A DNA stretch of 64,000 nt. It comes from an uncultured Actinomycetes bacterium (GTDB lineage Bacteria > Actinomycetota > Thermoleophilia > UBA2241). The stretch spans positions 192,001 to 256,000 of the forward strand of contig CAVRZA010000002.1 of assembly GCA_963725665.1 (NCBI GenBank), written 5' to 3'. This document shows positions 7,614-39,417 of the stretch, piece by piece (positions within the stretch are counted from its first letter, which is position 1; the number at the start of each line of letters is the position of its first letter). The notes under the pieces were generated by a model. That model worked only from the letters and a program-made list of their open reading frames with translations, was not told where the DNA came from and searched no databases. Both the position numbers and the translations under genes were made by a program.

Positions 7614-8432
7614 ATGCAGGACCTTTCGCTCACCTGGGAATCCTGGAACCCCGTCACCGGCTGCACCAAGGTCTCGGCCGGCTGTGCGCACTGCTACGCG
7701 GAGCGCTTCGCCGAGCGCTGGCGGGGCATCCCCGGCCACCACTACGAGCACGGCTTCGAGCTGCAACTGCGCCCCGAGCGCCTCGCGCTACCGCTGCGCT
7801 GGAAGAAGCCGCGGCGCGTGTTCGTCGACTCGATGTTCGACCTCTTCCACGAGGAGCTTCCCGAGGACTACATCCGTGAGATCTTCGCCGTCATGGAACG
7901 CGCGCCGCGGCACGTCTTCCACGCGCTCACGAAGCGCGAAACGCGCCTGCTCGAGCTGGCGCCGTCGCTGTCTTGGCCGGCCAACGTCTGGATGGGCGTC
8001 ACCGTCGAGAGCATGGACTACGCGCGGCGCGTCGCCGCGCTGCGCGCGGTGCCCGCCGCCGTGCGTCATATCAGCGCCGAGCCGCTGCTGGGGCCGCTCG
8101 ACGAGCTCGATCTCAGCGGCATCGACTGGGTGATCGCGGGCGGCGAGTCGGGACCGACTCGCCGCCCGCCGCGACCCGAGTGGCTGCGCGGGCTGCGCGA
8201 CCGCTGCCACGCGCAAGGCGTCGCCTTCACCTTCAAGGGCTGGGGCGGGCGCGTGCAGGGGCAGCTCGGCCGCGAGCTCGACGGCCGCGAGTGGGACGAG
8301 CAACCGCCCGTGCGCGCGCCCGGCGTCAGCCCCGCCGTCAGTCCCGGCGAACGGTCCGCGGCGCCCGAGACCGAGGCCGAGCGCGCGCCTGCTGCCGAAG
8401 AGACCTGGCAGCAGGCGCGCCTCTGGTCCTGA
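7614..8432 (+). CDS. DUF5131 (phage Gp37/Gp68-like) three-Cys Fe-S protein
   Basis: WNPVTGCTKVSAGCAHCYAE, SMFDLFH, LTKR, SAEPLLG, WVIAGGESG. Confidence 0.9.
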   Translation: MQDLSLTWESWNPVTGCTKVSAGCAHCYAERFAERWRGIPGHHYEHGFELQLRPERLALPLRWKKPRRVFVDSMFDLFHEELPEDYIREIFAVMERAPRHVFHALTKRETRLLELAPSLSWPANVWMGVTVESMDYARRVAALRAVPAAVRHISAEPLLGPLDELDLSGIDWVIAGGESGPTRRPPRPEWLRGLRDRCHAQGVAFTFKGWGGRVQGQLGRELDGREWDEQPPVRAPGVSPAVSPGERSAAPETEAERAPAAEETWQQARLWS

Positions 8433-32605: not shown

Positions 32606-34081
32606 TCAGCCGATCATCCTCTCGTCGTCGCTCCTCACCGGGACGAGCGCCGGCTCGCCGAAGCGGGCCTCGAGCTCGTCACCGGTCGGCAGGTACGAGA
32701 CCGAGTCGGGCACGACGTCCTGGCGCGGCGGGATGGCGATCGCCGCGAAGGTCGCGAGTCCGACCGCCGCGGCACCGACCCAGAGGGCGGCGATGAGACC
32801 GTTGACGAACGATGCCGGCGTCAGGTAGCCGCCGACGGCGGAGAAGACGCTCGCCAGCACGGCCACGCCGAAGACGCCGCCGACCTCGCGCACGGTGTTG
32901 TTGACGCCCGAGGCCTTGCCTTCCTCCTCCCGGCGCACGGCCGAGAGCACCAGGTTGGCGACCGGGGCGAAGTAGAGCGACATGCCCACGCCCGCCATCA
33001 CGAAGGCCGGCACCAGGTCGCCGTAGGCCACGGTCACCGAGCTCACGACGGCCAGCCAGGCCAGCGCGCCGCTCATGAGCACCATGCCGGCGATCAGCAG
33101 CGGACGGCTGCCGATACGATCGGAGAGGATGCCGGCGATCGGCGCCACCAGGATCGGCATCGCCGTCCAGGGCAGCGTGCGCAGGCCCGCCTGCAGGGGC
33201 GAGTAGCCCTGCACGATCTGGAAGAACTGCGCCAGCAGGAAGATCGAGCCGAACATGCCGAAGCTCATGAAGAGCGACGTCAGGTTGGCGGCCGAGAAGG
33301 CGCGCCGGCGGAAGAAGCGCATGGGCACCATGGGCGCCCGCGAGCGCAGCTCCCAGGCGACGAAGGCGACGACCAGCGCGGCGCCGGCGATCATGGGCAC
33401 GAGCACGCCGGCGCTCGTCCAGCCGTGGGCGTTGCCGCGCACGAGCCCCCACACGAGGCCGAACAGGCCGGTGCTGATCAGGGCCAGCCCGGGCAGGTCG
33501 AGCGAGCGGTTGGGTCCGCGCGTCTCGCTCAGGCGGAAGAACGCGACCGGCAGTAGCGCGATGCCGATGGGCACGTTGAGCCAGAAGATCCACTGCCAGG
33601 AGAAGCCGTCGACGACGGCGCCGCCGATGACTGGACCGAGCGCCACGGCCAGACCGGCGGTGCCGCTCCAGATGCCGAGGGCAAGCCCTCGGCGGGCCGG
33701 CGGCACCGCCGCCGACAGGATGGTCAGCGTCAGCGGCGTGACGATGGCGCCGCCCACGCCCTGCAGGGCGCGCGCCGCGATGAGCGCCTCGATGCTGGGC
33801 GCCAGGGCGGCGAAGGCCGAGCCGGCGGTGAAGATCGTGAGTCCCACGAGGAACATGCGCTTGCGACCGAAGCGGTCGCCCAGCGCGGCGCCGGTCAGCA
33901 GCAGCACGGCGAAGGTGAGGGTGTAGGCGTTGACGGTCCACTCGAGACCGGAGAGCGACGCCCCGAGGTCGCGCTTGATCACCGGCAGCGCGGTGGTCAC
34001 GACGAGGTTGTCGAGCGACACCATGAAGATGGCGACCCCGGTGACGATGAAGGTCCAGATGGTCATGGCCCTCTTGCTCAT
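32606..34081 (-). CDS. DHA2 (EmrB/QacA) MFS efflux transporter
   Basis: LDNLVVTTALP, WTVNAY, GDRFGRKR, WQWIFWLNVPIG; 14 TM. Confidence 0.93.
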   Translation of the reverse strand: MSKRAMTIWTFIVTGVAIFMVSLDNLVVTTALPVIKRDLGASLSGLEWTVNAYTLTFAVLLLTGAALGDRFGRKRMFLVGLTIFTAGSAFAALAPSIEALIAARALQGVGGAIVTPLTLTILSAAVPPARRGLALGIWSGTAGLAVALGPVIGGAVVDGFSWQWIFWLNVPIGIALLPVAFFRLSETRGPNRSLDLPGLALISTGLFGLVWGLVRGNAHGWTSAGVLVPMIAGAALVVAFVAWELRSRAPMVPMRFFRRRAFSAANLTSLFMSFGMFGSIFLLAQFFQIVQGYSPLQAGLRTLPWTAMPILVAPIAGILSDRIGSRPLLIAGMVLMSGALAWLAVVSSVTVAYGDLVPAFVMAGVGMSLYFAPVANLVLSAVRREEEGKASGVNNTVREVGGVFGVAVLASVFSAVGGYLTPASFVNGLIAALWVGAAAVGLATFAAIAIPPRQDVVPDSVSYLPTGDELEARFGEPALVPVRSDDERMIG

Positions 34082-34106
34082 GCTTGTTCATCTCCTCTCT
34101 TCTAAC

Positions 34107-34120
34107 TTAGTAGTCACTTA
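34107..34120. promoter_or_regulatory. Putative TetR operator upstream of the MFS gene
   Basis: TTAGTAGTCACTTA, nearly identical to TTAGCAGTCACTAA upstream of tetR. Confidence 0.65.
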
Positions 34121-34171
34121 CTTTGCAGGACAAAAAAGGGGAAGCTGAAGGCCGGCCGCTGCCGGCTCGCG

Positions 34172-34738
34172 CTACTTATGCGCCTCCAAGATCTCGCCGC
34201 CGATGCACATCCTGGCCCAGTCCTCATCAACGTTGCTCAGGTCCATGGCGGCGGCCACGTTCATGAGCATGCCCTGCGCGAGCCACTCCCTGACGTCGTA
34301 GTCGGCGGCGCCCGAGGCGCCTTGCACGAAGCGCACCAGGCGCAGGAACTCCTCGCGCACCGCCTCGCGCACGTCCTCGTCGCCGCAGGCGGCGTAGGCC
34401 TGCATCTGCATGAGCAGGAGATTTCTGTCTGCGAGCAGACGGTGGTAGGCCAAGCCCATGGCGATCAGGACGGTCTTCATGTCGGCGTCCTCGCCGGCCT
34501 CGGCCGCCGCGGTGCGGAAGGTGGCCACGGTGCGCTCGAAGGCCCGCCGGACGGCGGCGATGAAGAGGTCCTTCTTGGTGCCGAAGAGCTGGAACAGGTA
34601 GGGCTGCGAGACGCCGACCCTCTTTGCGATCGCCTCGACGGGCGTGCCGTAGAGTCCGCCTACGGCGAACTCACGGGTCGCCGCCTCGACGATCTCGCGC
34701 CGGCGCTCTTCCTTGCTCAGTCTCGTCGTTGCCTTCAT
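34172..34738 (-). CDS. TetR-family regulator (probably leaderless)
   Basis: N-terminal HTH IAKRVGVSQPYLFQLFGTK. TACAAT lies 7 nt upstream of the ATG at 34738. Confidence 0.92.
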   Translation of the reverse strand: MKATTRLSKEERRREIVEAATREFAVGGLYGTPVEAIAKRVGVSQPYLFQLFGTKKDLFIAAVRRAFERTVATFRTAAAEAGEDADMKTVLIAMGLAYHRLLADRNLLLMQMQAYAACGDEDVREAVREEFLRLVRFVQGASGAADYDVREWLAQGMLMNVAAAMDLSNVDEDWARMCIGGEILEAHK

Positions 34739-34757
34739 GGCAGGCATTGTACCCTAG

Positions 34758-34771
34758 TTAGCAGTCACTAA
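34758..34771. promoter_or_regulatory. Putative TetR autoregulatory operator
   Basis: Imperfect palindrome TTAGCAGTCACTAA inside the tetR promoter. Confidence 0.65.
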
Positions 34772-34924
34772 ACAAGTGTTTGCGTCAAGGGGGTGCGCCA
34801 AGTGCTTGATCGGTCGCCCCACCGACGGGCGGGACTGGCGTCTGTCAAGGCGATGACCGGATGTCCCGCGCCTGCGGACTGGTCCCGCGGATGTGACCGT
34901 GAACCCTTCGTACACAGACTGTCC

Positions 34925-34953
34925 ATGACACCCACGCAACCTGGTGCTAGGGT
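34925..34953 (+). promoter_or_regulatory. Pc-like cassette promoter
   Basis: ATGACA-N17-TAGGGT with an extended -10 TG, pointing at the cassettes. Confidence 0.55.
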
Positions 34954-34958
34954 CCTCT

Positions 34959-35018
34959 GCATAAACAGGCGGTCGATGCCGAACACCATCCGCAGCCTGT
35001 CGAATCCTTGTTCGGCAT
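34959..35018 (+). mobile_element. attI-like recombination site
   Basis: Inverted simple site TGTCGAA-TCCTTG-TTCGGCA containing the GTT core (35010), preceded by related boxes GCATAAAC (34959) and TGCCGAAC (34977). Confidence 0.5.
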
Positions 35019-35036
35019 ACAGAGGAGGAGTAGGCC

Positions 35037-35245
35037 GTGGCCACCCAGTATGAGTACAAGTCTGTTTCCGGGAAATCAAAGGTGGGTGGCTGACCGGGAG
35101 ACTGAAGCCTGAGTATCGCGAGACAATCACACGGCATGCGCAGGACGGCTGGAGGTTTGTCCAGGCGTTCGCTCCCCCTGTTGGTGGCGTCGGTGAGGCA
35201 GACTACGTTGACCTGATCTTCGAGGGCCCATACGAGGAGTACTGA
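35037..35245 (+). CDS. DUF4177-like small protein, cassette 1 (one frameshift; not in the ORF track)
   Basis: RBS GAGGAGG plus GTG; MATQYEYKSV...GWLTGRLKPEYRETITRHAQDGWRFVQAFAP...YVDLIFE. Confidence 0.75.
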
Positions 35246-35246
35246 T

Positions 35247-35312
35247 GCCGAACAGGCAGATTGAACTGGCACACGGCTTCGCCGTGCGCAGCTCATCTGC
35301 TCAGCGTTGGGC
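35247..35312 (+). mobile_element. Complete integron attC site (66 bp)
   Basis: R'' GCCGAAC, 5-bp spacer, L'' GATTGAAC, central stem with TTC loop, L' GCTCATC, R' GTTGGGC; two extrahelical bases in the left arm. Confidence 0.85.
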
Positions 35313-35317
35313 GTACT

Positions 35318-36166
35318 ATGACTGAGTCGACGAACATGCCGGCGGACAAGAGTCTCTTCTTCTACGGGTCGGTCTATCACCGGCTGCTGGACCCGCCGCT
35401 CGCCGAAGCGCGACGCGTTGCTGTCGACCTCGTCGCGGACGGCAGTTCAGTGCTGGATCTCGGCTGCGGCACTGGAGAGCTGTGCTTCGATCTGCTGGAG
35501 AAAAAGCACTGCCGTGTCGTGGGCGTGGATTTGTCGTTGCGGATGCTGGACTTCGCCCGTAAGGCCACCAGGTCCGCAGAGATCGCCTTCCTGCACTTGG
35601 ATGCGACGGACCTTGTGGGGATCGAAGACCATGCGTTCGATGTCGCTACGATTCTTCTTCTGGTTCACGAGCTGCCGATTGAAGAACGCGTGCGAGTCCT
35701 CGGCGAAGCACTTCGTGTGGCCAGAGCAGTCCTGATCATCGATGCAGCGGCCCCGCTGCCTTGGAACGGCGGCGGCATTGGGATTCGGACTGTTGAGTAT
35801 TCGTTCGGCCACGCGCACTATCACCATTTCAGGGACTTCCTTGCGCGAGGGGGCATTGACGGCCTCCTCGCCGAGTACGGTTGCGCCGGGGCGGTGGTGC
35901 GGCGTGAGCTGTTCTGGCGCAACTGCCGGGAGGCCGTGGTCGTTGCAGAGCGGAGGCATGATGACCTGCGCGCCGCCCAACAAGGGTCTCAACCGGACGC
36001 GCCCAAGCGCTCCGAAAGGCTGAAGCCGCAGCCCGCGCAGGGTATCCGCCCGGCGCTGGGTGCAGCTTGCGTCGGATCCTCCTCGGGGGAGTCCGCGTCT
36101 ATTCGATCTCCGCGTGCGAGCTGTCGCAGAACGGGGGATTGCCGGTCAGGCCGCAGTTGCAGATAG
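35318..36166 (+). CDS. Class I SAM methyltransferase, cassette 2 (reads through its attC)
   Basis: VLDLGCGTG, GVDLSLRML, LLVHE. Lower GC. Begins just after R'; C-terminus after about 35970 is attC-derived. Confidence 0.82.
   Translation: MTESTNMPADKSLFFYGSVYHRLLDPPLAEARRVAVDLVADGSSVLDLGCGTGELCFDLLEKKHCRVVGVDLSLRMLDFARKATRSAEIAFLHLDATDLVGIEDHAFDVATILLLVHELPIEERVRVLGEALRVARAVLIIDAAAPLPWNGGGIGIRTVEYSFGHAHYHHFRDFLARGGIDGLLAEYGCAGAVVRRELFWRNCREAVVVAERRHDDLRAAQQGSQPDAPKRSERLKPQPAQGIRPALGAACVGSSSGESASIRSPRASCRRTGDCRSGRSCR
35975..36063 (+). mobile_element. Truncated attC site (left arm and central stem only)
   Basis: R'' GCCCAAC-AAGGG-L'' TCTCAACC, stem GCGCCCAAGCGC/GCGCTGGGTGC; L' and R' are absent. 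Confidence 0.65.
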
Positions 36167-36343
36167 CTTGTGCGATGGGCTCCTCGATCTTGAACTTGAC
36201 GGGGATGACCCCCGTCCCCGTGTGCGGCCGTCGCAATACGGGACTGTCCGCGTCCTGCCGCAACGGCACCATAAGTAGGTCCTTTTGCCGAGCTCGGTGA
36301 CCAGCGGGTGGCTTGTTGCCTCATCGTTCTCGAACCGCGTCAT
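36099..36343 (-). CDS. CDGSH iron-sulfur domain protein (frameshifted)
   Basis: WCRCGRTRTVPYCDG and ICNCGLTGNPPFCDSSH. Confidence 0.82.
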
Positions 36344-36463
36344 GGCGGGCTCCTTCCTCCAGGGCTAGGCGGTCAATCATACGGGTGCGTTGTACAACAC
36401 GCACGCCTAAGCACCGCATCGAGCGGACGCCGTCGGCTACACTTGTCCCACCAGGATGAAGGC

Positions 36464-36965
36464 GTGGATACCCAGATCGTCGTCACCGTAGTAGCCGGGC
36501 TCCTGCTGGCCGTCGCTGCGATCGGGACGGTCTACCCGGTGCTACCAGGCAGCCTCCTGGCCATCATCACGCTGATCGCCTGGGCCTGGATCATCGGTTC
36601 ACCCGAGGCGTGGACCGTCGCCGTGATCGGCTCGGTCATCGCCGGGATGGGCTGGTCGGCGAGCGCGGTGCTCACCGGTCGCAAGCTGAGACAACAGCAG
36701 GTCCCCAAGCGCTCCATCGCCGTGGCCGTGGTGTCGGCCGTGGTGGGCATGTTCCTGATCCCGGTGGTCGGTCTGTTCGTCGGCTTCGGCGCCGGGCTGC
36801 TGGCGAGCGAATACGCCCGGCGCCGGGACTTCCGTGCGGCTCTCGATTCAAGTGTGGAGACGTTGAAGGCGACCGGCCTCGGCATCCTGGTGGAGTTCGG
36901 CCTGGTGTGCCTGGCCGCCTCGGTGTGGATGATCGGCGTGATCGTCTCACTTCACGACCCGGTAG
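36464..36965 (+). CDS. DUF456 family membrane protein (indel near the 3' end)
   Basis: GTVYPVLPG, IPVVGLFVGFGAGLLASE. Confidence 0.82.
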
Positions 36966-39417
36966 GCTTGCGCGGCGACCGCCGGGCCGTGGGCTTGTCC
37001 TCCAGCGTCTTGCTCTTCTCGGCCAGCTCGGCCAGCCGGTCGGCGACCATGCGGTTCACCGTGCCCGTCGGGGTAGCGGCCGTCGCCGCCGGGCTCGCCC
37101 GCGGGCAGGCCGGTCAGCACCTCGATCCCCTCGTCGATCGTGGTGATGGGGTAGACGGCGAACTGCCCGGCGGCGACGGCCTCCACCACATCCTGGCGCA
37201 GCATGAGGTGCTTGACGTTGGCCTCGGGGATCAGCACGCCCTGGTCGCCGGTCAGTCCGCGCGCCTTGCACAGGTCGAAGAAGCCCTCGATCTTCTCGTT
37301 GACGCCGCCGATGGCCTGCACCTCGCCGGACTGATTGACCGAACCGGTCACCGCGAACGACTGCGTGATGGGCACGCGCGCGATCGCCGAGAGCAGCGCG
37401 TAGAGCTCGGCGGACGAGGCGCTGTCCCCGTCGACCCCGCCGTAGGACTGCTCGAAGACCAGGCTCGCCCCGAGCGACAGCGGATGCTCCTGGGCGTAGC
37501 GGCCGCGCAGGAAGCCGGACAGGATCAGCACGCCCTTGGAGTGGATCGGCCCGCTCAGCTCCACCTCGCGCTCGATGTCGACCACCTCGTCCTTGCCCAT
37601 GTGGACGGTGGCGCTGATGCGGCTGGCCTGGCCGAAGCTGAAGGTGCCCAGAGAGAGCACCGACAGCCCGTTGATCTGGCCGACCTTGGTCCCCTCGGTG
37701 TCGATGAGTACCGTCTTGCGCAGCACTTCTTCCCGCATGCGCGCGGGCAGGCGGTCCGAACGGTAGATCTGGGCGTCGATCGCCTGCTGCACGTGGGCGA
37801 CGCTGACCAGCTTCGGCGCTTCTCGCGCCGCGCGCGAGTGGTCGGCCTCCTCGAGCAGGTCCACGATGGCCCGCATCTGGGCCGTGACGCGCTCCGAGTC
37901 GCCGACCAGGCGCGACGCGTGCTCGACGACCCGGCAGACGGCGCCGCGGTCGAGCGGCAGCAGCCCCTCGCGCTCGGACGATGGCCGCGATCAGCCGCGC
38001 GTACTGTCGGGTGGTCTCCTCGTCGCGCACGAAGTCGTCGTCGAAGTCGGCCGCGATCTTGAACAGCTCGTTGAAGTCGGGGTCGCTCCTGGGCCAGCAG
38101 GTAGTAGAGCTGGCGGTCGCCCATGAGGATCACCTTGATGTCCAGCGGGATCGGCTCGGGCTCGAGCGAGACGGTGCTGGTGACGCTGAGCATCTGCCCC
38201 GGCGACTCGATGCGGATCTGCTGGAAGCGGAGGGCGCGCTTCAGTCCTTCCCAGGCGTAGGGATTGGAGAGCACCTTGAGCGCGTCCAGGATCAGATAGC
38301 CGCCGTTGGCGCGATGCAGCACACCGGGCTTGATCAGCGTGAAGTCGGTGACCAGCGCGCCCATCATGGAGCATCTGCTCCACGCGGCCCACCAGGTTGA
38401 GATAGGACGGGTTGCTCTCGTAGATGACCGGCGCTCCGGCGGCACCGCTGGAATCGATCAGCACGTTGACCCGATAGCGGCGCAGCGCGGGCGGCTTGCC
38501 CGAGGCGTCGGGGATGGGCAGGTTTGCCGCCGCGCCTTCCTCGGGCTTCTCCTCGCCGGTCTCCAGGAAGTCGCTCAAGTGGTCGCCGACGCTCCTCTGC
38601 ACTGCCGCGAGGTAGGCCGCACACGTCGGGCAGGTCCTTGTACTTGACCAGCAGGTCGTCGACCAGGTCGTTGACCACCACGGCGGTGACCTCGTTGTTC
38701 AGGTCGCGCAGGCGGCTGCCGAACTCACGCTTCCAGCGCGGCACCTGCAGCAGCACCTTCTGCAGCTCCCCCTGCAGCGACTCGATCTCGTCCTCGAGGC
38801 GCTTCTGCTCGTCAGCGGGCAGCTTCTGGAACTCCTCGGGGGAGACGACCTCGCCGTCCTTCATCGGGGCGAACGCGAAGCCGGTCGGCGCCTGCAGCAG
38901 GGCCAGGCCGCGCCCGCTGCGCCTGCTTCTGCAGCTCGGCGAGGCTCTCTTTCTGGCGCTCCTCGAATTCCTCCTCCAGGGTGCGACGGCGCGTCGTGTA
39001 CTCGTCACTCTCGAAGGCGGACGAGAGGCCGGTGCGCAGCTCTTCCACCAGGCGTTCCATGTCGCGTTTCAGTTGCTTGCCCATGCCGGTCGGCAAGCGC
39101 AGGGCGCGCGGTGTGGAGGGCTGTTCGAAGTCGTTGACATAGCACCAGTCGTCCGGGGACGGTTCGTCCGCGGCGCGCTGCTCCACGAAGCGCTGGATGA
39201 CGGTGTACTTGCCCGTGCCGCTGGGTCCGAGCGCGAAGATGTTGTAGCCCTGGCGGTCGATGGTGACACCGAGCTCGATGGCGGCGATGGGGCGGTCCTG
39301 GCCGATGAACTCGATGTCGGTCTTCAGGTCGGCGGTCGTGGCGAAGTCGAGATGGTCCAGAGTGCAGTGTCTGTAGAGGGCTTCGGGCGGCAAGGGTCGT
39401 ACGGAGGCCACGGTCAT
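36947..39417 (-). CDS. LonC-type ATP-dependent S16 protease (multiple frameshifts)
   Basis: [59 protein letters not shown] (catalytic Ser) and [10 protein letters not shown] (Lys). Confidence 0.88.

Follow-up and report, generated by a model that had tools for sequence, protein, structure and literature searches.

An integron cassette array headed by a putative attI platform in an actinomycetotal genome assembly without an integrase gene

Organisation of the locus

The locus described here lies in a 64-kb window (the whole stretch of DNA that was analysed) and consists of a short platform and two gene cassettes, placed between a divergent tetR gene and a convergent gene for a CDGSH iron-sulfur protein. 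As the first-pass annotation of this DNA had described, the array coincides with a block of lower GC content (34650–35849; 0.587–0.62 in 300-nt windows, against about 0.65–0.75 on either side). Two models are referred to throughout: R1, a covariance model of attC sites made from an alignment of 46 sites that come from relatives only, none being from this genome, and R2, a sequence profile of the attI platform. The features of the locus are as follows.

34172–34747, minus strand: tetR gene, divergent and upstream of the low-GC block (Pfam TetR_N)
34913–35012, plus strand: putative attI platform ('element A'), by homology to intI-adjacent DNA of relatives (R2, 81.4 bits)
35011–35306, plus strand: cassette 1, beginning with the TT of the crossover GTT in attI and ending with the G of the attC1 R' box
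35037–35245, plus strand: DUF4177 gene, frameshifted, in frames 35037–35093 and 35054–35245 (Pfam PF13783)
35247–35312, plus strand: attC1, 66 nt, R'' GCCGAAC and R' GTTGGGC (R1, 47.2 bits, E = 3.5e-11)
35307–36055, plus strand: cassette 2, beginning with the TT of the attC1 R' box and ending with the initial base of the mutated R' box in attC2
35318–36166, plus strand: class I SAM-dependent methyltransferase gene, its frame reading through attC2 (Pfam Methyltransf_25, 66.3 bits)
35975–36061, plus strand: attC2, 87 nt, R'' GCCCAAC and R' GCTGGGT (R1, 46.1 bits, E = 7.3e-11)
36099–36343, minus strand: CDGSH iron-sulfur gene in two frames, convergent with and next to the array (two zf-CDGSH matches)

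The strings on which the earlier annotation of an integron array relied, GTTCGGCAT (35010–35018), ATGCCGAAC (35245–35253) and CGCCCAAC (35974–35981), are present where it had put them, and so are its core boxes GCCGAAC (35247–35253) and GTTGGGC (35306–35312). Cassette 1 is flanked by an exact 11-nt direct repeat, GATGCCGAACA (34975–34985 and 35244–35254), which is not a target-site duplication, as the GCCGAAC box occurs in both the attI and the R'' of attC1. The tetR gene and an MFS gene are conserved in relatives, and synteny stops at the start of tetR in every locus compared. Farther along the window, a Lon-like protease gene (about 36947–39008, minus strand) is apparently broken into four or more overlapping frames, judging by eye from the list of open reading frames.

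The two attC sites

In the alignment of the 46 sites of relatives, the L''/L' helix is 90.7% paired, and 10 of its 15 pairs carry compensatory changes. Only about half of the cells are paired at the outer R''/R' positions, as integron cassettes predict, because R' is part of the next cassette. The class 1 integron of a Citrobacter plasmid (12,960 bases) was used as a positive control, in which R1 found the sites after aac(6')-Ib, catB3 and arr-3 (E = 1.2e-4, 2.9e-7 and 1.8e-4, respectively) and weakly matched the site after blaOXA-1 (E = 0.31), with nothing else below E = 0.2; three of the four class 1 attC sites are thus recovered at E < 1e-3.

Run with filters off over the entire window, R1 produced two strong matches, at 35247–35312 (47.2 bits) and 35975–36061 (46.1 bits), the third-best match scoring 13.2 bits (E = 0.22). 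The best of them has exactly the coordinates annotated earlier for attC1, and in its alignment two positions are left unpaired, in agreement with the two extrahelical bases that had been proposed. A search with an attC covariance model had been suggested as a check, and with R1 as that model both sites are found. Because R1 was trained on other genomes and matches both, we judge the sites to be real, and the data support their assignment to the attC type, of the classical IntI/attC kind.

The two sites differ in their state of preservation. Compared with the core sequences RYYYAAC and GTTRRRY, attC1 (GCCGAAC and GTTGGGC) has a G instead of a pyrimidine at position 4 of R'', with one R''/R' mismatch among the four variable positions, and retains both conserved triplets (AAC and GTT). 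In attC2, R'' (GCCCAAC) agrees with the core, the R' GCTGGGT makes the agreement partial, the L''/L' stem is weakened, and the R1 alignment marks several positions as non-paired. The original description of an attC-type site after each gene stands in so far as R1 recognises both, and needs amendment for the mutated R' of the second. A BLAST comparison of the region with its own genome found copies of the second palindrome on contigs C11 and C1, with which attC2 can be aligned. In relatives, the palindrome profile picks out co-oriented arrays, such as the nine sites spaced 300–750 bp apart on contig C7 of genome G012.

The hairpins might instead be ordinary terminators or repeats unconnected with integrons, the complementarity of the cassette ends having arisen by chance. 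In the 1.7 kb from 34700 to 36400 there are 45 inverted pairs of at least 8 nt, and the 8–10 nt complementarities of the array, taken alone, are not beyond chance. At the first hairpin it is the bottom strand alone of 35240–35320 that outperforms its shuffles, at −18.4 kcal/mol (z = −3.12, 1 of 200 shuffles being as good), the top strand folding at −16.0 kcal/mol (z = −1.51, 12 of 200); the fold of the second site is no better than that of its shuffles (z = −1.51 and −0.73). Rfam gave no match to 34000–37000 at E ≤ 1, and we know of no attC family in it. Arguing against terminators and chance repeats are the R1 scores (46–47 bits, the best background match reaching 13 bits), the ability of the same model to find class 1 attC sites, the presence of the same sites in arrays beside true IntI genes of relatives, and the cassette-boundary rule described below, which holds. 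We give this explanation hardly any credence. A simple R''...R' regular expression was also tried as a site finder and abandoned, its 41 matches being mostly noise with few real sites.

Cassette-boundary footprint

The footprint of cassette insertion was evaluated in 81 R1 matches from 12 loci of relatives, comprising 70 neighbouring pairs. In 36 of the 70 pairs, all four variable positions in the R' of one site complemented those in the R'' of the next; the same agreement was seen in 4 of 81 comparisons within sites and in 7.9% of random pairings. The misses are partly due to match ends misplaced by one or two bases. Both cassettes of the window are perfect in this respect (four of four variable positions): GTTCGGC (35010–35016) is the exact complement of the attC1 R'' GCCGAAC (35247–35253), and GTTGGGC (35306–35312) that of the attC2 R'' GCCCAAC (35975–35981). 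The first-pass annotation had stated that the R'' of each cassette complements its own 5' end, and the comparison with relatives bears this out.

The putative attI platform

The element at 34913–35012 begins with CACAGACTG and ends with AATCCTTGTT, its crossover GTT being located at 35010–35012. Features common to it and to its counterparts in relatives are CACAGACTG on the left, further CAGACTG-type boxes, and ...TAATCCTTGTT on the right; it also has an inverse-core-like GCCGAAC box at 34979–34985. The element aligns over its full length with DNA that starts 10–25 nt after the intI stop codon (loci L048, L044 and L049), the adjacency to intI being present in relatives and absent in this genome. 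It is copied twice more in this genome, at C11:457762–457861 and on contig C4, where an IS110-like insertion splits it, and the similarity between the three copies ends exactly at the GTT. A solo platform on G012:C7 ends with GTTAGAG, and CTCTAAC opens the first attC that follows. The same architecture occurs after intI in metagenome-assembled genomes (MAGs) labelled Desulfarculus, Omnitrophota, NC10 and Coriobacteriia. On the left side, a contig of run X1 matches the window from 34913 onward and differs before that position, so the border of the platform is discrete there too. Its homology to intI-adjacent DNA, its GTT end and its pairing with the first attC identify 34913–35012 as a putative attI platform. 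A riboswitch or leader RNA had been considered for the same stretch and was dropped in view of the homology to intI-adjacent DNA.

Within the platform there is a promoter-like sequence, also common to it and its counterparts, ATGACA (34925–34930) and TAGGGT (34948–34953) with a 17-nt spacer, in which TAGGGT was read by eye as the −10 element from what we take to be the actinobacterial −10 pattern. A sigma-70 scan of 34600–36400 with an E. coli-type consensus returned no promoters and a single terminator at chance level. The cassette genes had been called promoterless; in their context they are not, since they lie behind a putative attI platform that contains a promoter-like sequence. This attI head had been missed in the first-pass annotation, along with the richness of the family in integrons and the decay of the array, both described below.

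Cassette genes and decay of the array

Both cassette genes are damaged. In the first, the DUF4177 domain (PF13783, 43 bits, E = 5.5e-11) is matched by 35054–35242 and is carried by the second frame (35054–35245), while the N-terminal MATQYEYKSV belongs to the first, which runs from a GTG at 35037 to a stop at 35091–35093; the frameshift is between 35054 and 35093. With no differences and no gaps, 34976–35126 is covered by a contig of run X3, whose study code is unlike that of the best-matching run. The methyltransferase frame encodes 282 amino acids, about 70 codons of which are extra and run through attC2; its homologues are mostly 205–215 amino acids long (the closest, 93% identical, has 215) and end 3–5 residues past CREAVVVA. 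Read by eye, the frame seems to lack one base near 35947; with that base put back, a stop in the register of the homologues would return.

Contigs of other runs support the defects outside about 35944–35984, the stretch in which the methyltransferase stop was lost. One of them, from run X2, covers 35985–36135 without a difference and has the same GCTGGGT in attC2. The window array is, as far as can be read from its sequence, decaying, with a frameshift in DUF4177, a lost stop in the methyltransferase gene and GCT for GTT in attC2. Both AAC and GTT are kept in 6 of the 11 R1 matches of this genome and in 59 of the 81 sites in the loci of relatives, the latter count being lowered by some misplaced ends; a greater decay of sites than in relatives is thus suggestive, not clear.

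The earlier annotation would have been contradicted by both genes being fixed loci, without the palindromes, in relatives. This was tested for the methyltransferase, which is no fixed gene of the family, being found in none of the 88 other family genomes at E ≤ 1e-15. Next to the array, the CDGSH gene (36099–36343) is likewise in two frames (zf-CDGSH, 31.7 and 29.9 bits), with one base apparently missing, by eye, in the first CDG(S)H motif near 36225–36229; this break seems real, because a run X2 contig covers 36175–36325 with no difference. Assembly error behind the DUF4177 and CDGSH breaks was rejected on the strength of such gapless 151-nt contigs of other runs.

Host and integrase genes

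The WhiB family (PF02467), which among 14 control genomes was present in Corynebacterium glutamicum alone, was found in 84 of the 151 genomes compared from the phylum (a count that includes seven flagged as unpublished) and in none of the 61 from the class to which the window belongs. By this distribution the phylum is Actinomycetota and the class a WhiB-less lineage. Depositors have labelled as Thermoleophilia both G012, of the same family, and five other close IntI loci. The actinobacterial host suspected initially agrees with both lines of evidence.

The assembly of this genome (12 contigs, 3.73 Mb) has 97.53% completeness and 5.04% contamination. Proteins were called IntI above the TIGR02249 cut-off of 265 bits, and the best match in this assembly scored 85.9 bits, so that the absence of intI noted earlier for the window extends to the whole assembly. 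Among the 89 genomes of the family, 47 have an IntI over the cut-off and 42 do not (in the first five relatives tested, four did), and 80 have attC sites (R1, E ≤ 1e-5), the highest counts reaching the ceiling of 49 scored candidates and so being at least that number per genome. Across an even sample of the phylum, IntI exceeded the cut-off in 19 of 401 genomes, concentrated in a few families; this count includes two genomes flagged as unpublished, G181 and G241. The IntI of G012 (P0001) shares 55.9% identity with IntI1 across 92% of its length and contains the segment ...ALARKYPNAPADWRWQWVFP..., presumably the IntI-typical signature. At all 14 intI loci with attC matches, the sites are downstream of intI and on the same strand.

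The family is integron-rich, though the phylum has been reported to be nearly without integrons. In the relevant passages of two reference surveys, Cury 2016 (PMC4889954) and Neron 2022 (PMC9024848), Actinobacteria have no complete integron, with one In0 and a few CALINs, and corresponding passages of a 2026 permafrost study (PMC13323075) put Actinomycetota at about 0.2 integrons per genome, a 'virtual absence of integrons'. Set against these surveys are IntI in 47 of 89 and attC sites in 80 of 89 genomes of a single family.

A two-gene module, by eye a toxin-antitoxin pair, directly follows intI in five relatives (G003, G020, G021, G099 and G101). The same module is found in this genome just past the third attC of the C11 array (C11:454400–456020, locus L022), where it is inverted and interrupted by about 900 bp; it may be what remains of the surroundings of an integrase gene since lost.

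Dispersed platforms and further arrays

With R2, the platform was detected in 55 of the 89 family genomes, usually in several copies. BLAST had been tried as a platform finder and discarded, since it reached only 3 of 89 family genomes; an exact pattern, also tried, was too strict. Five well-assembled relatives were inspected closely, counting the attC sites downstream of a platform on the same strand and contig.

G012: 30 of 30 attC sites downstream of a platform; 5 platform-led arrays
G100: 31 of 31 attC sites; 6 platform-led arrays
G021: 8 of 18 attC sites; 3 platform-led arrays
G084: 10 of 11 attC sites; 3 platform-led arrays
G072 (no IntI): 11 of 15 attC sites; 5 platform-led arrays
Total, five relatives: 90 of 105 attC sites; 22 platform-led arrays

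Four of these 22 arrays adjoin intI and 18 are far from it; arrays remote from intI are therefore normal.

Three attI-led arrays were found in this genome. Besides the window array with its two cassettes, there is one on contig C11 with three attC sites and one on contig C4, whose platform is split by an IS110-like element and whose first attC contains another IS110-like fragment, with three more attC sites behind this first one. Sites outside such arrays are two attC at 73 kb and one at 545 kb of contig C1. The cassettes at these other loci encode GNAT acetyltransferases, DUF1801 and RibD_C proteins, another methyltransferase and a YefM/YoeB pair. No empty site was found for the C11 array, the synteny of relatives having given out there as well. 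The IS110-like element in the C4 platform (transposase recognised by eye) occupies G000:C4:338290–339750, and the second fragment, in the attC of the following GNAT cassette, G000:C4:340340–341040; they recall the IS families that target attC sites.

Origin of the array

We consider it very probable that the locus is a satellite integron array, that is, an attI platform with two attC-ended cassettes whose integrase has been lost and which is now frozen and decaying. The first-pass annotation had proposed a CALIN or the remnant of a chromosomal integron, and it was right to do so because of the attC model, the footprint, the lack of IntI, the phylum of the host and a methyltransferase gene found in none of the 88 other genomes. 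In the sequence of events that we envisage, an IntI of the family type would have acted in trans from elsewhere in the chromosome of an ancestor, and circular cassettes would have been inserted at the G|TT of attI through recombination of this site with each attC, the latter taking part as its folded bottom strand. The methyltransferase cassette probably came in first and the DUF4177 cassette second, cassette 1 being the most recent insertion because it is adjacent to attI. Both would be transcribed from the promoter-like sequence in the platform. IntI would subsequently have disappeared, probably by loss and not through a gap in the assembly, leaving the array to freeze and decay, and attC2 would no longer be cleaved, having lost the GTT triplet needed for this.

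Another possible explanation is that the array is still active and is served in trans, like other platforms, by an intI located in unassembled or co-resident DNA. In relatives with one intI, 18 of 22 attI-led arrays are far from it, the attC1 and attI crossover sequences of the window are intact, and the completeness, contamination and 12 contigs of the assembly leave room for an unassembled intI. Such activity is difficult to reconcile with the lack of any IntI over the cut-off in 3.73 Mb, with GCT instead of GTT in attC2, which the run X2 contig confirms, and with damage to two of two cassette genes. The IS110-like insertions, which split one attI copy and one attC in this genome, also speak against it, as do the 42 of 89 family genomes that are likewise without an IntI over the cut-off. 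We therefore regard an active array as improbable and favour the satellite array with a lost integrase.

Relation to known integrons

Integrase-less cassette arrays are of a known kind, and what is new here is the putative attI head, the dispersed attI-led arrays throughout the family and the host phylum. Like a CALIN as defined in the passages of PMC4889954 concerned, the window array combines small accessory genes with two attC sites behind them, in the same orientation and about 0.7 kb from each other, and has no intI nearby or elsewhere in the assembly; that definition makes no provision for an attI, whereas this array is headed by a recognisable attI with a promoter-like sequence. The arrangement of a complete integron, with intI beside attI and cassettes, is absent from this genome and occurs in relatives (47 of 89 family genomes).

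The closest parallel in layout is the 'inverted integrase' group, in which, according to sections of PMC4889954 and PMC13323075, intI is on the cassette strand, as in Treponema. The cassettes of the relatives are likewise downstream of intI on its strand, the IntI encoded by a Treponema denticola MAG has 57% identity with that of G012, and an attI with CAGACTG-type boxes recurs after intI in the MAGs with Desulfarculus, Omnitrophota, NC10 and Coriobacteriia labels. In contrast to that group, as those sections portray it, the host here is an actinomycetote, several attI are present per genome and mostly far from intI, and this genome is without an integrase. With class 1 integrons the array shares the G|TT crossover, the RYYYAAC and GTTRRRY cores and an integrase relationship (IntI1 being 55.9% identical to the family IntI). 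In class 1 integrons, intI1 is divergent from the cassettes and the integrons reside on mobile elements with resistance cassettes, whereas the window array is chromosomal, carries DUF4177 and methyltransferase cassettes, and the intI of relatives is on the cassette strand. Archaeal integrons, in the parts of Ghaly 2022 (PMC9668308) that deal with them, also have a putative attI directly downstream of intI and are mostly CALINs in MAGs; they belong to a different domain of life, and those parts do not mention several attI per genome. Our literature searches yielded no account of Thermoleophilia integrons and none of genomes with several attI platforms; supplements may list such cases.

We tentatively suggest, as a possibility on which we remain divided, that the integron of the family is distributed, with one integrase serving scattered attI-plus-promoter platforms and the module of roughly 100 nt having spread as a unit; this genome would then be an integrase-lost descendant with frozen satellite arrays. 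If true, this would be an architecture that we have not found described, in a phylum repeatedly reported to be without complete integrons. The attI-led arrays far from intI make integrase action in trans and the origin of CALINs testable, and R1, being specific to the lineage, can serve as an attC model with which to mine soil and sediment Actinomycetota for cassettes.

Two integrase-less relatives, G024 and G085, have numerous partial platform copies (14 and 9 R2 matches, respectively). Two of those in G024 (L027:6853–6913 and 7884–7943) are in tandem ahead of unrelated genes, in a locus with no attC; the first box is absent from both and their GTT crossover is mutated. Such copies may have been kept as promoters.
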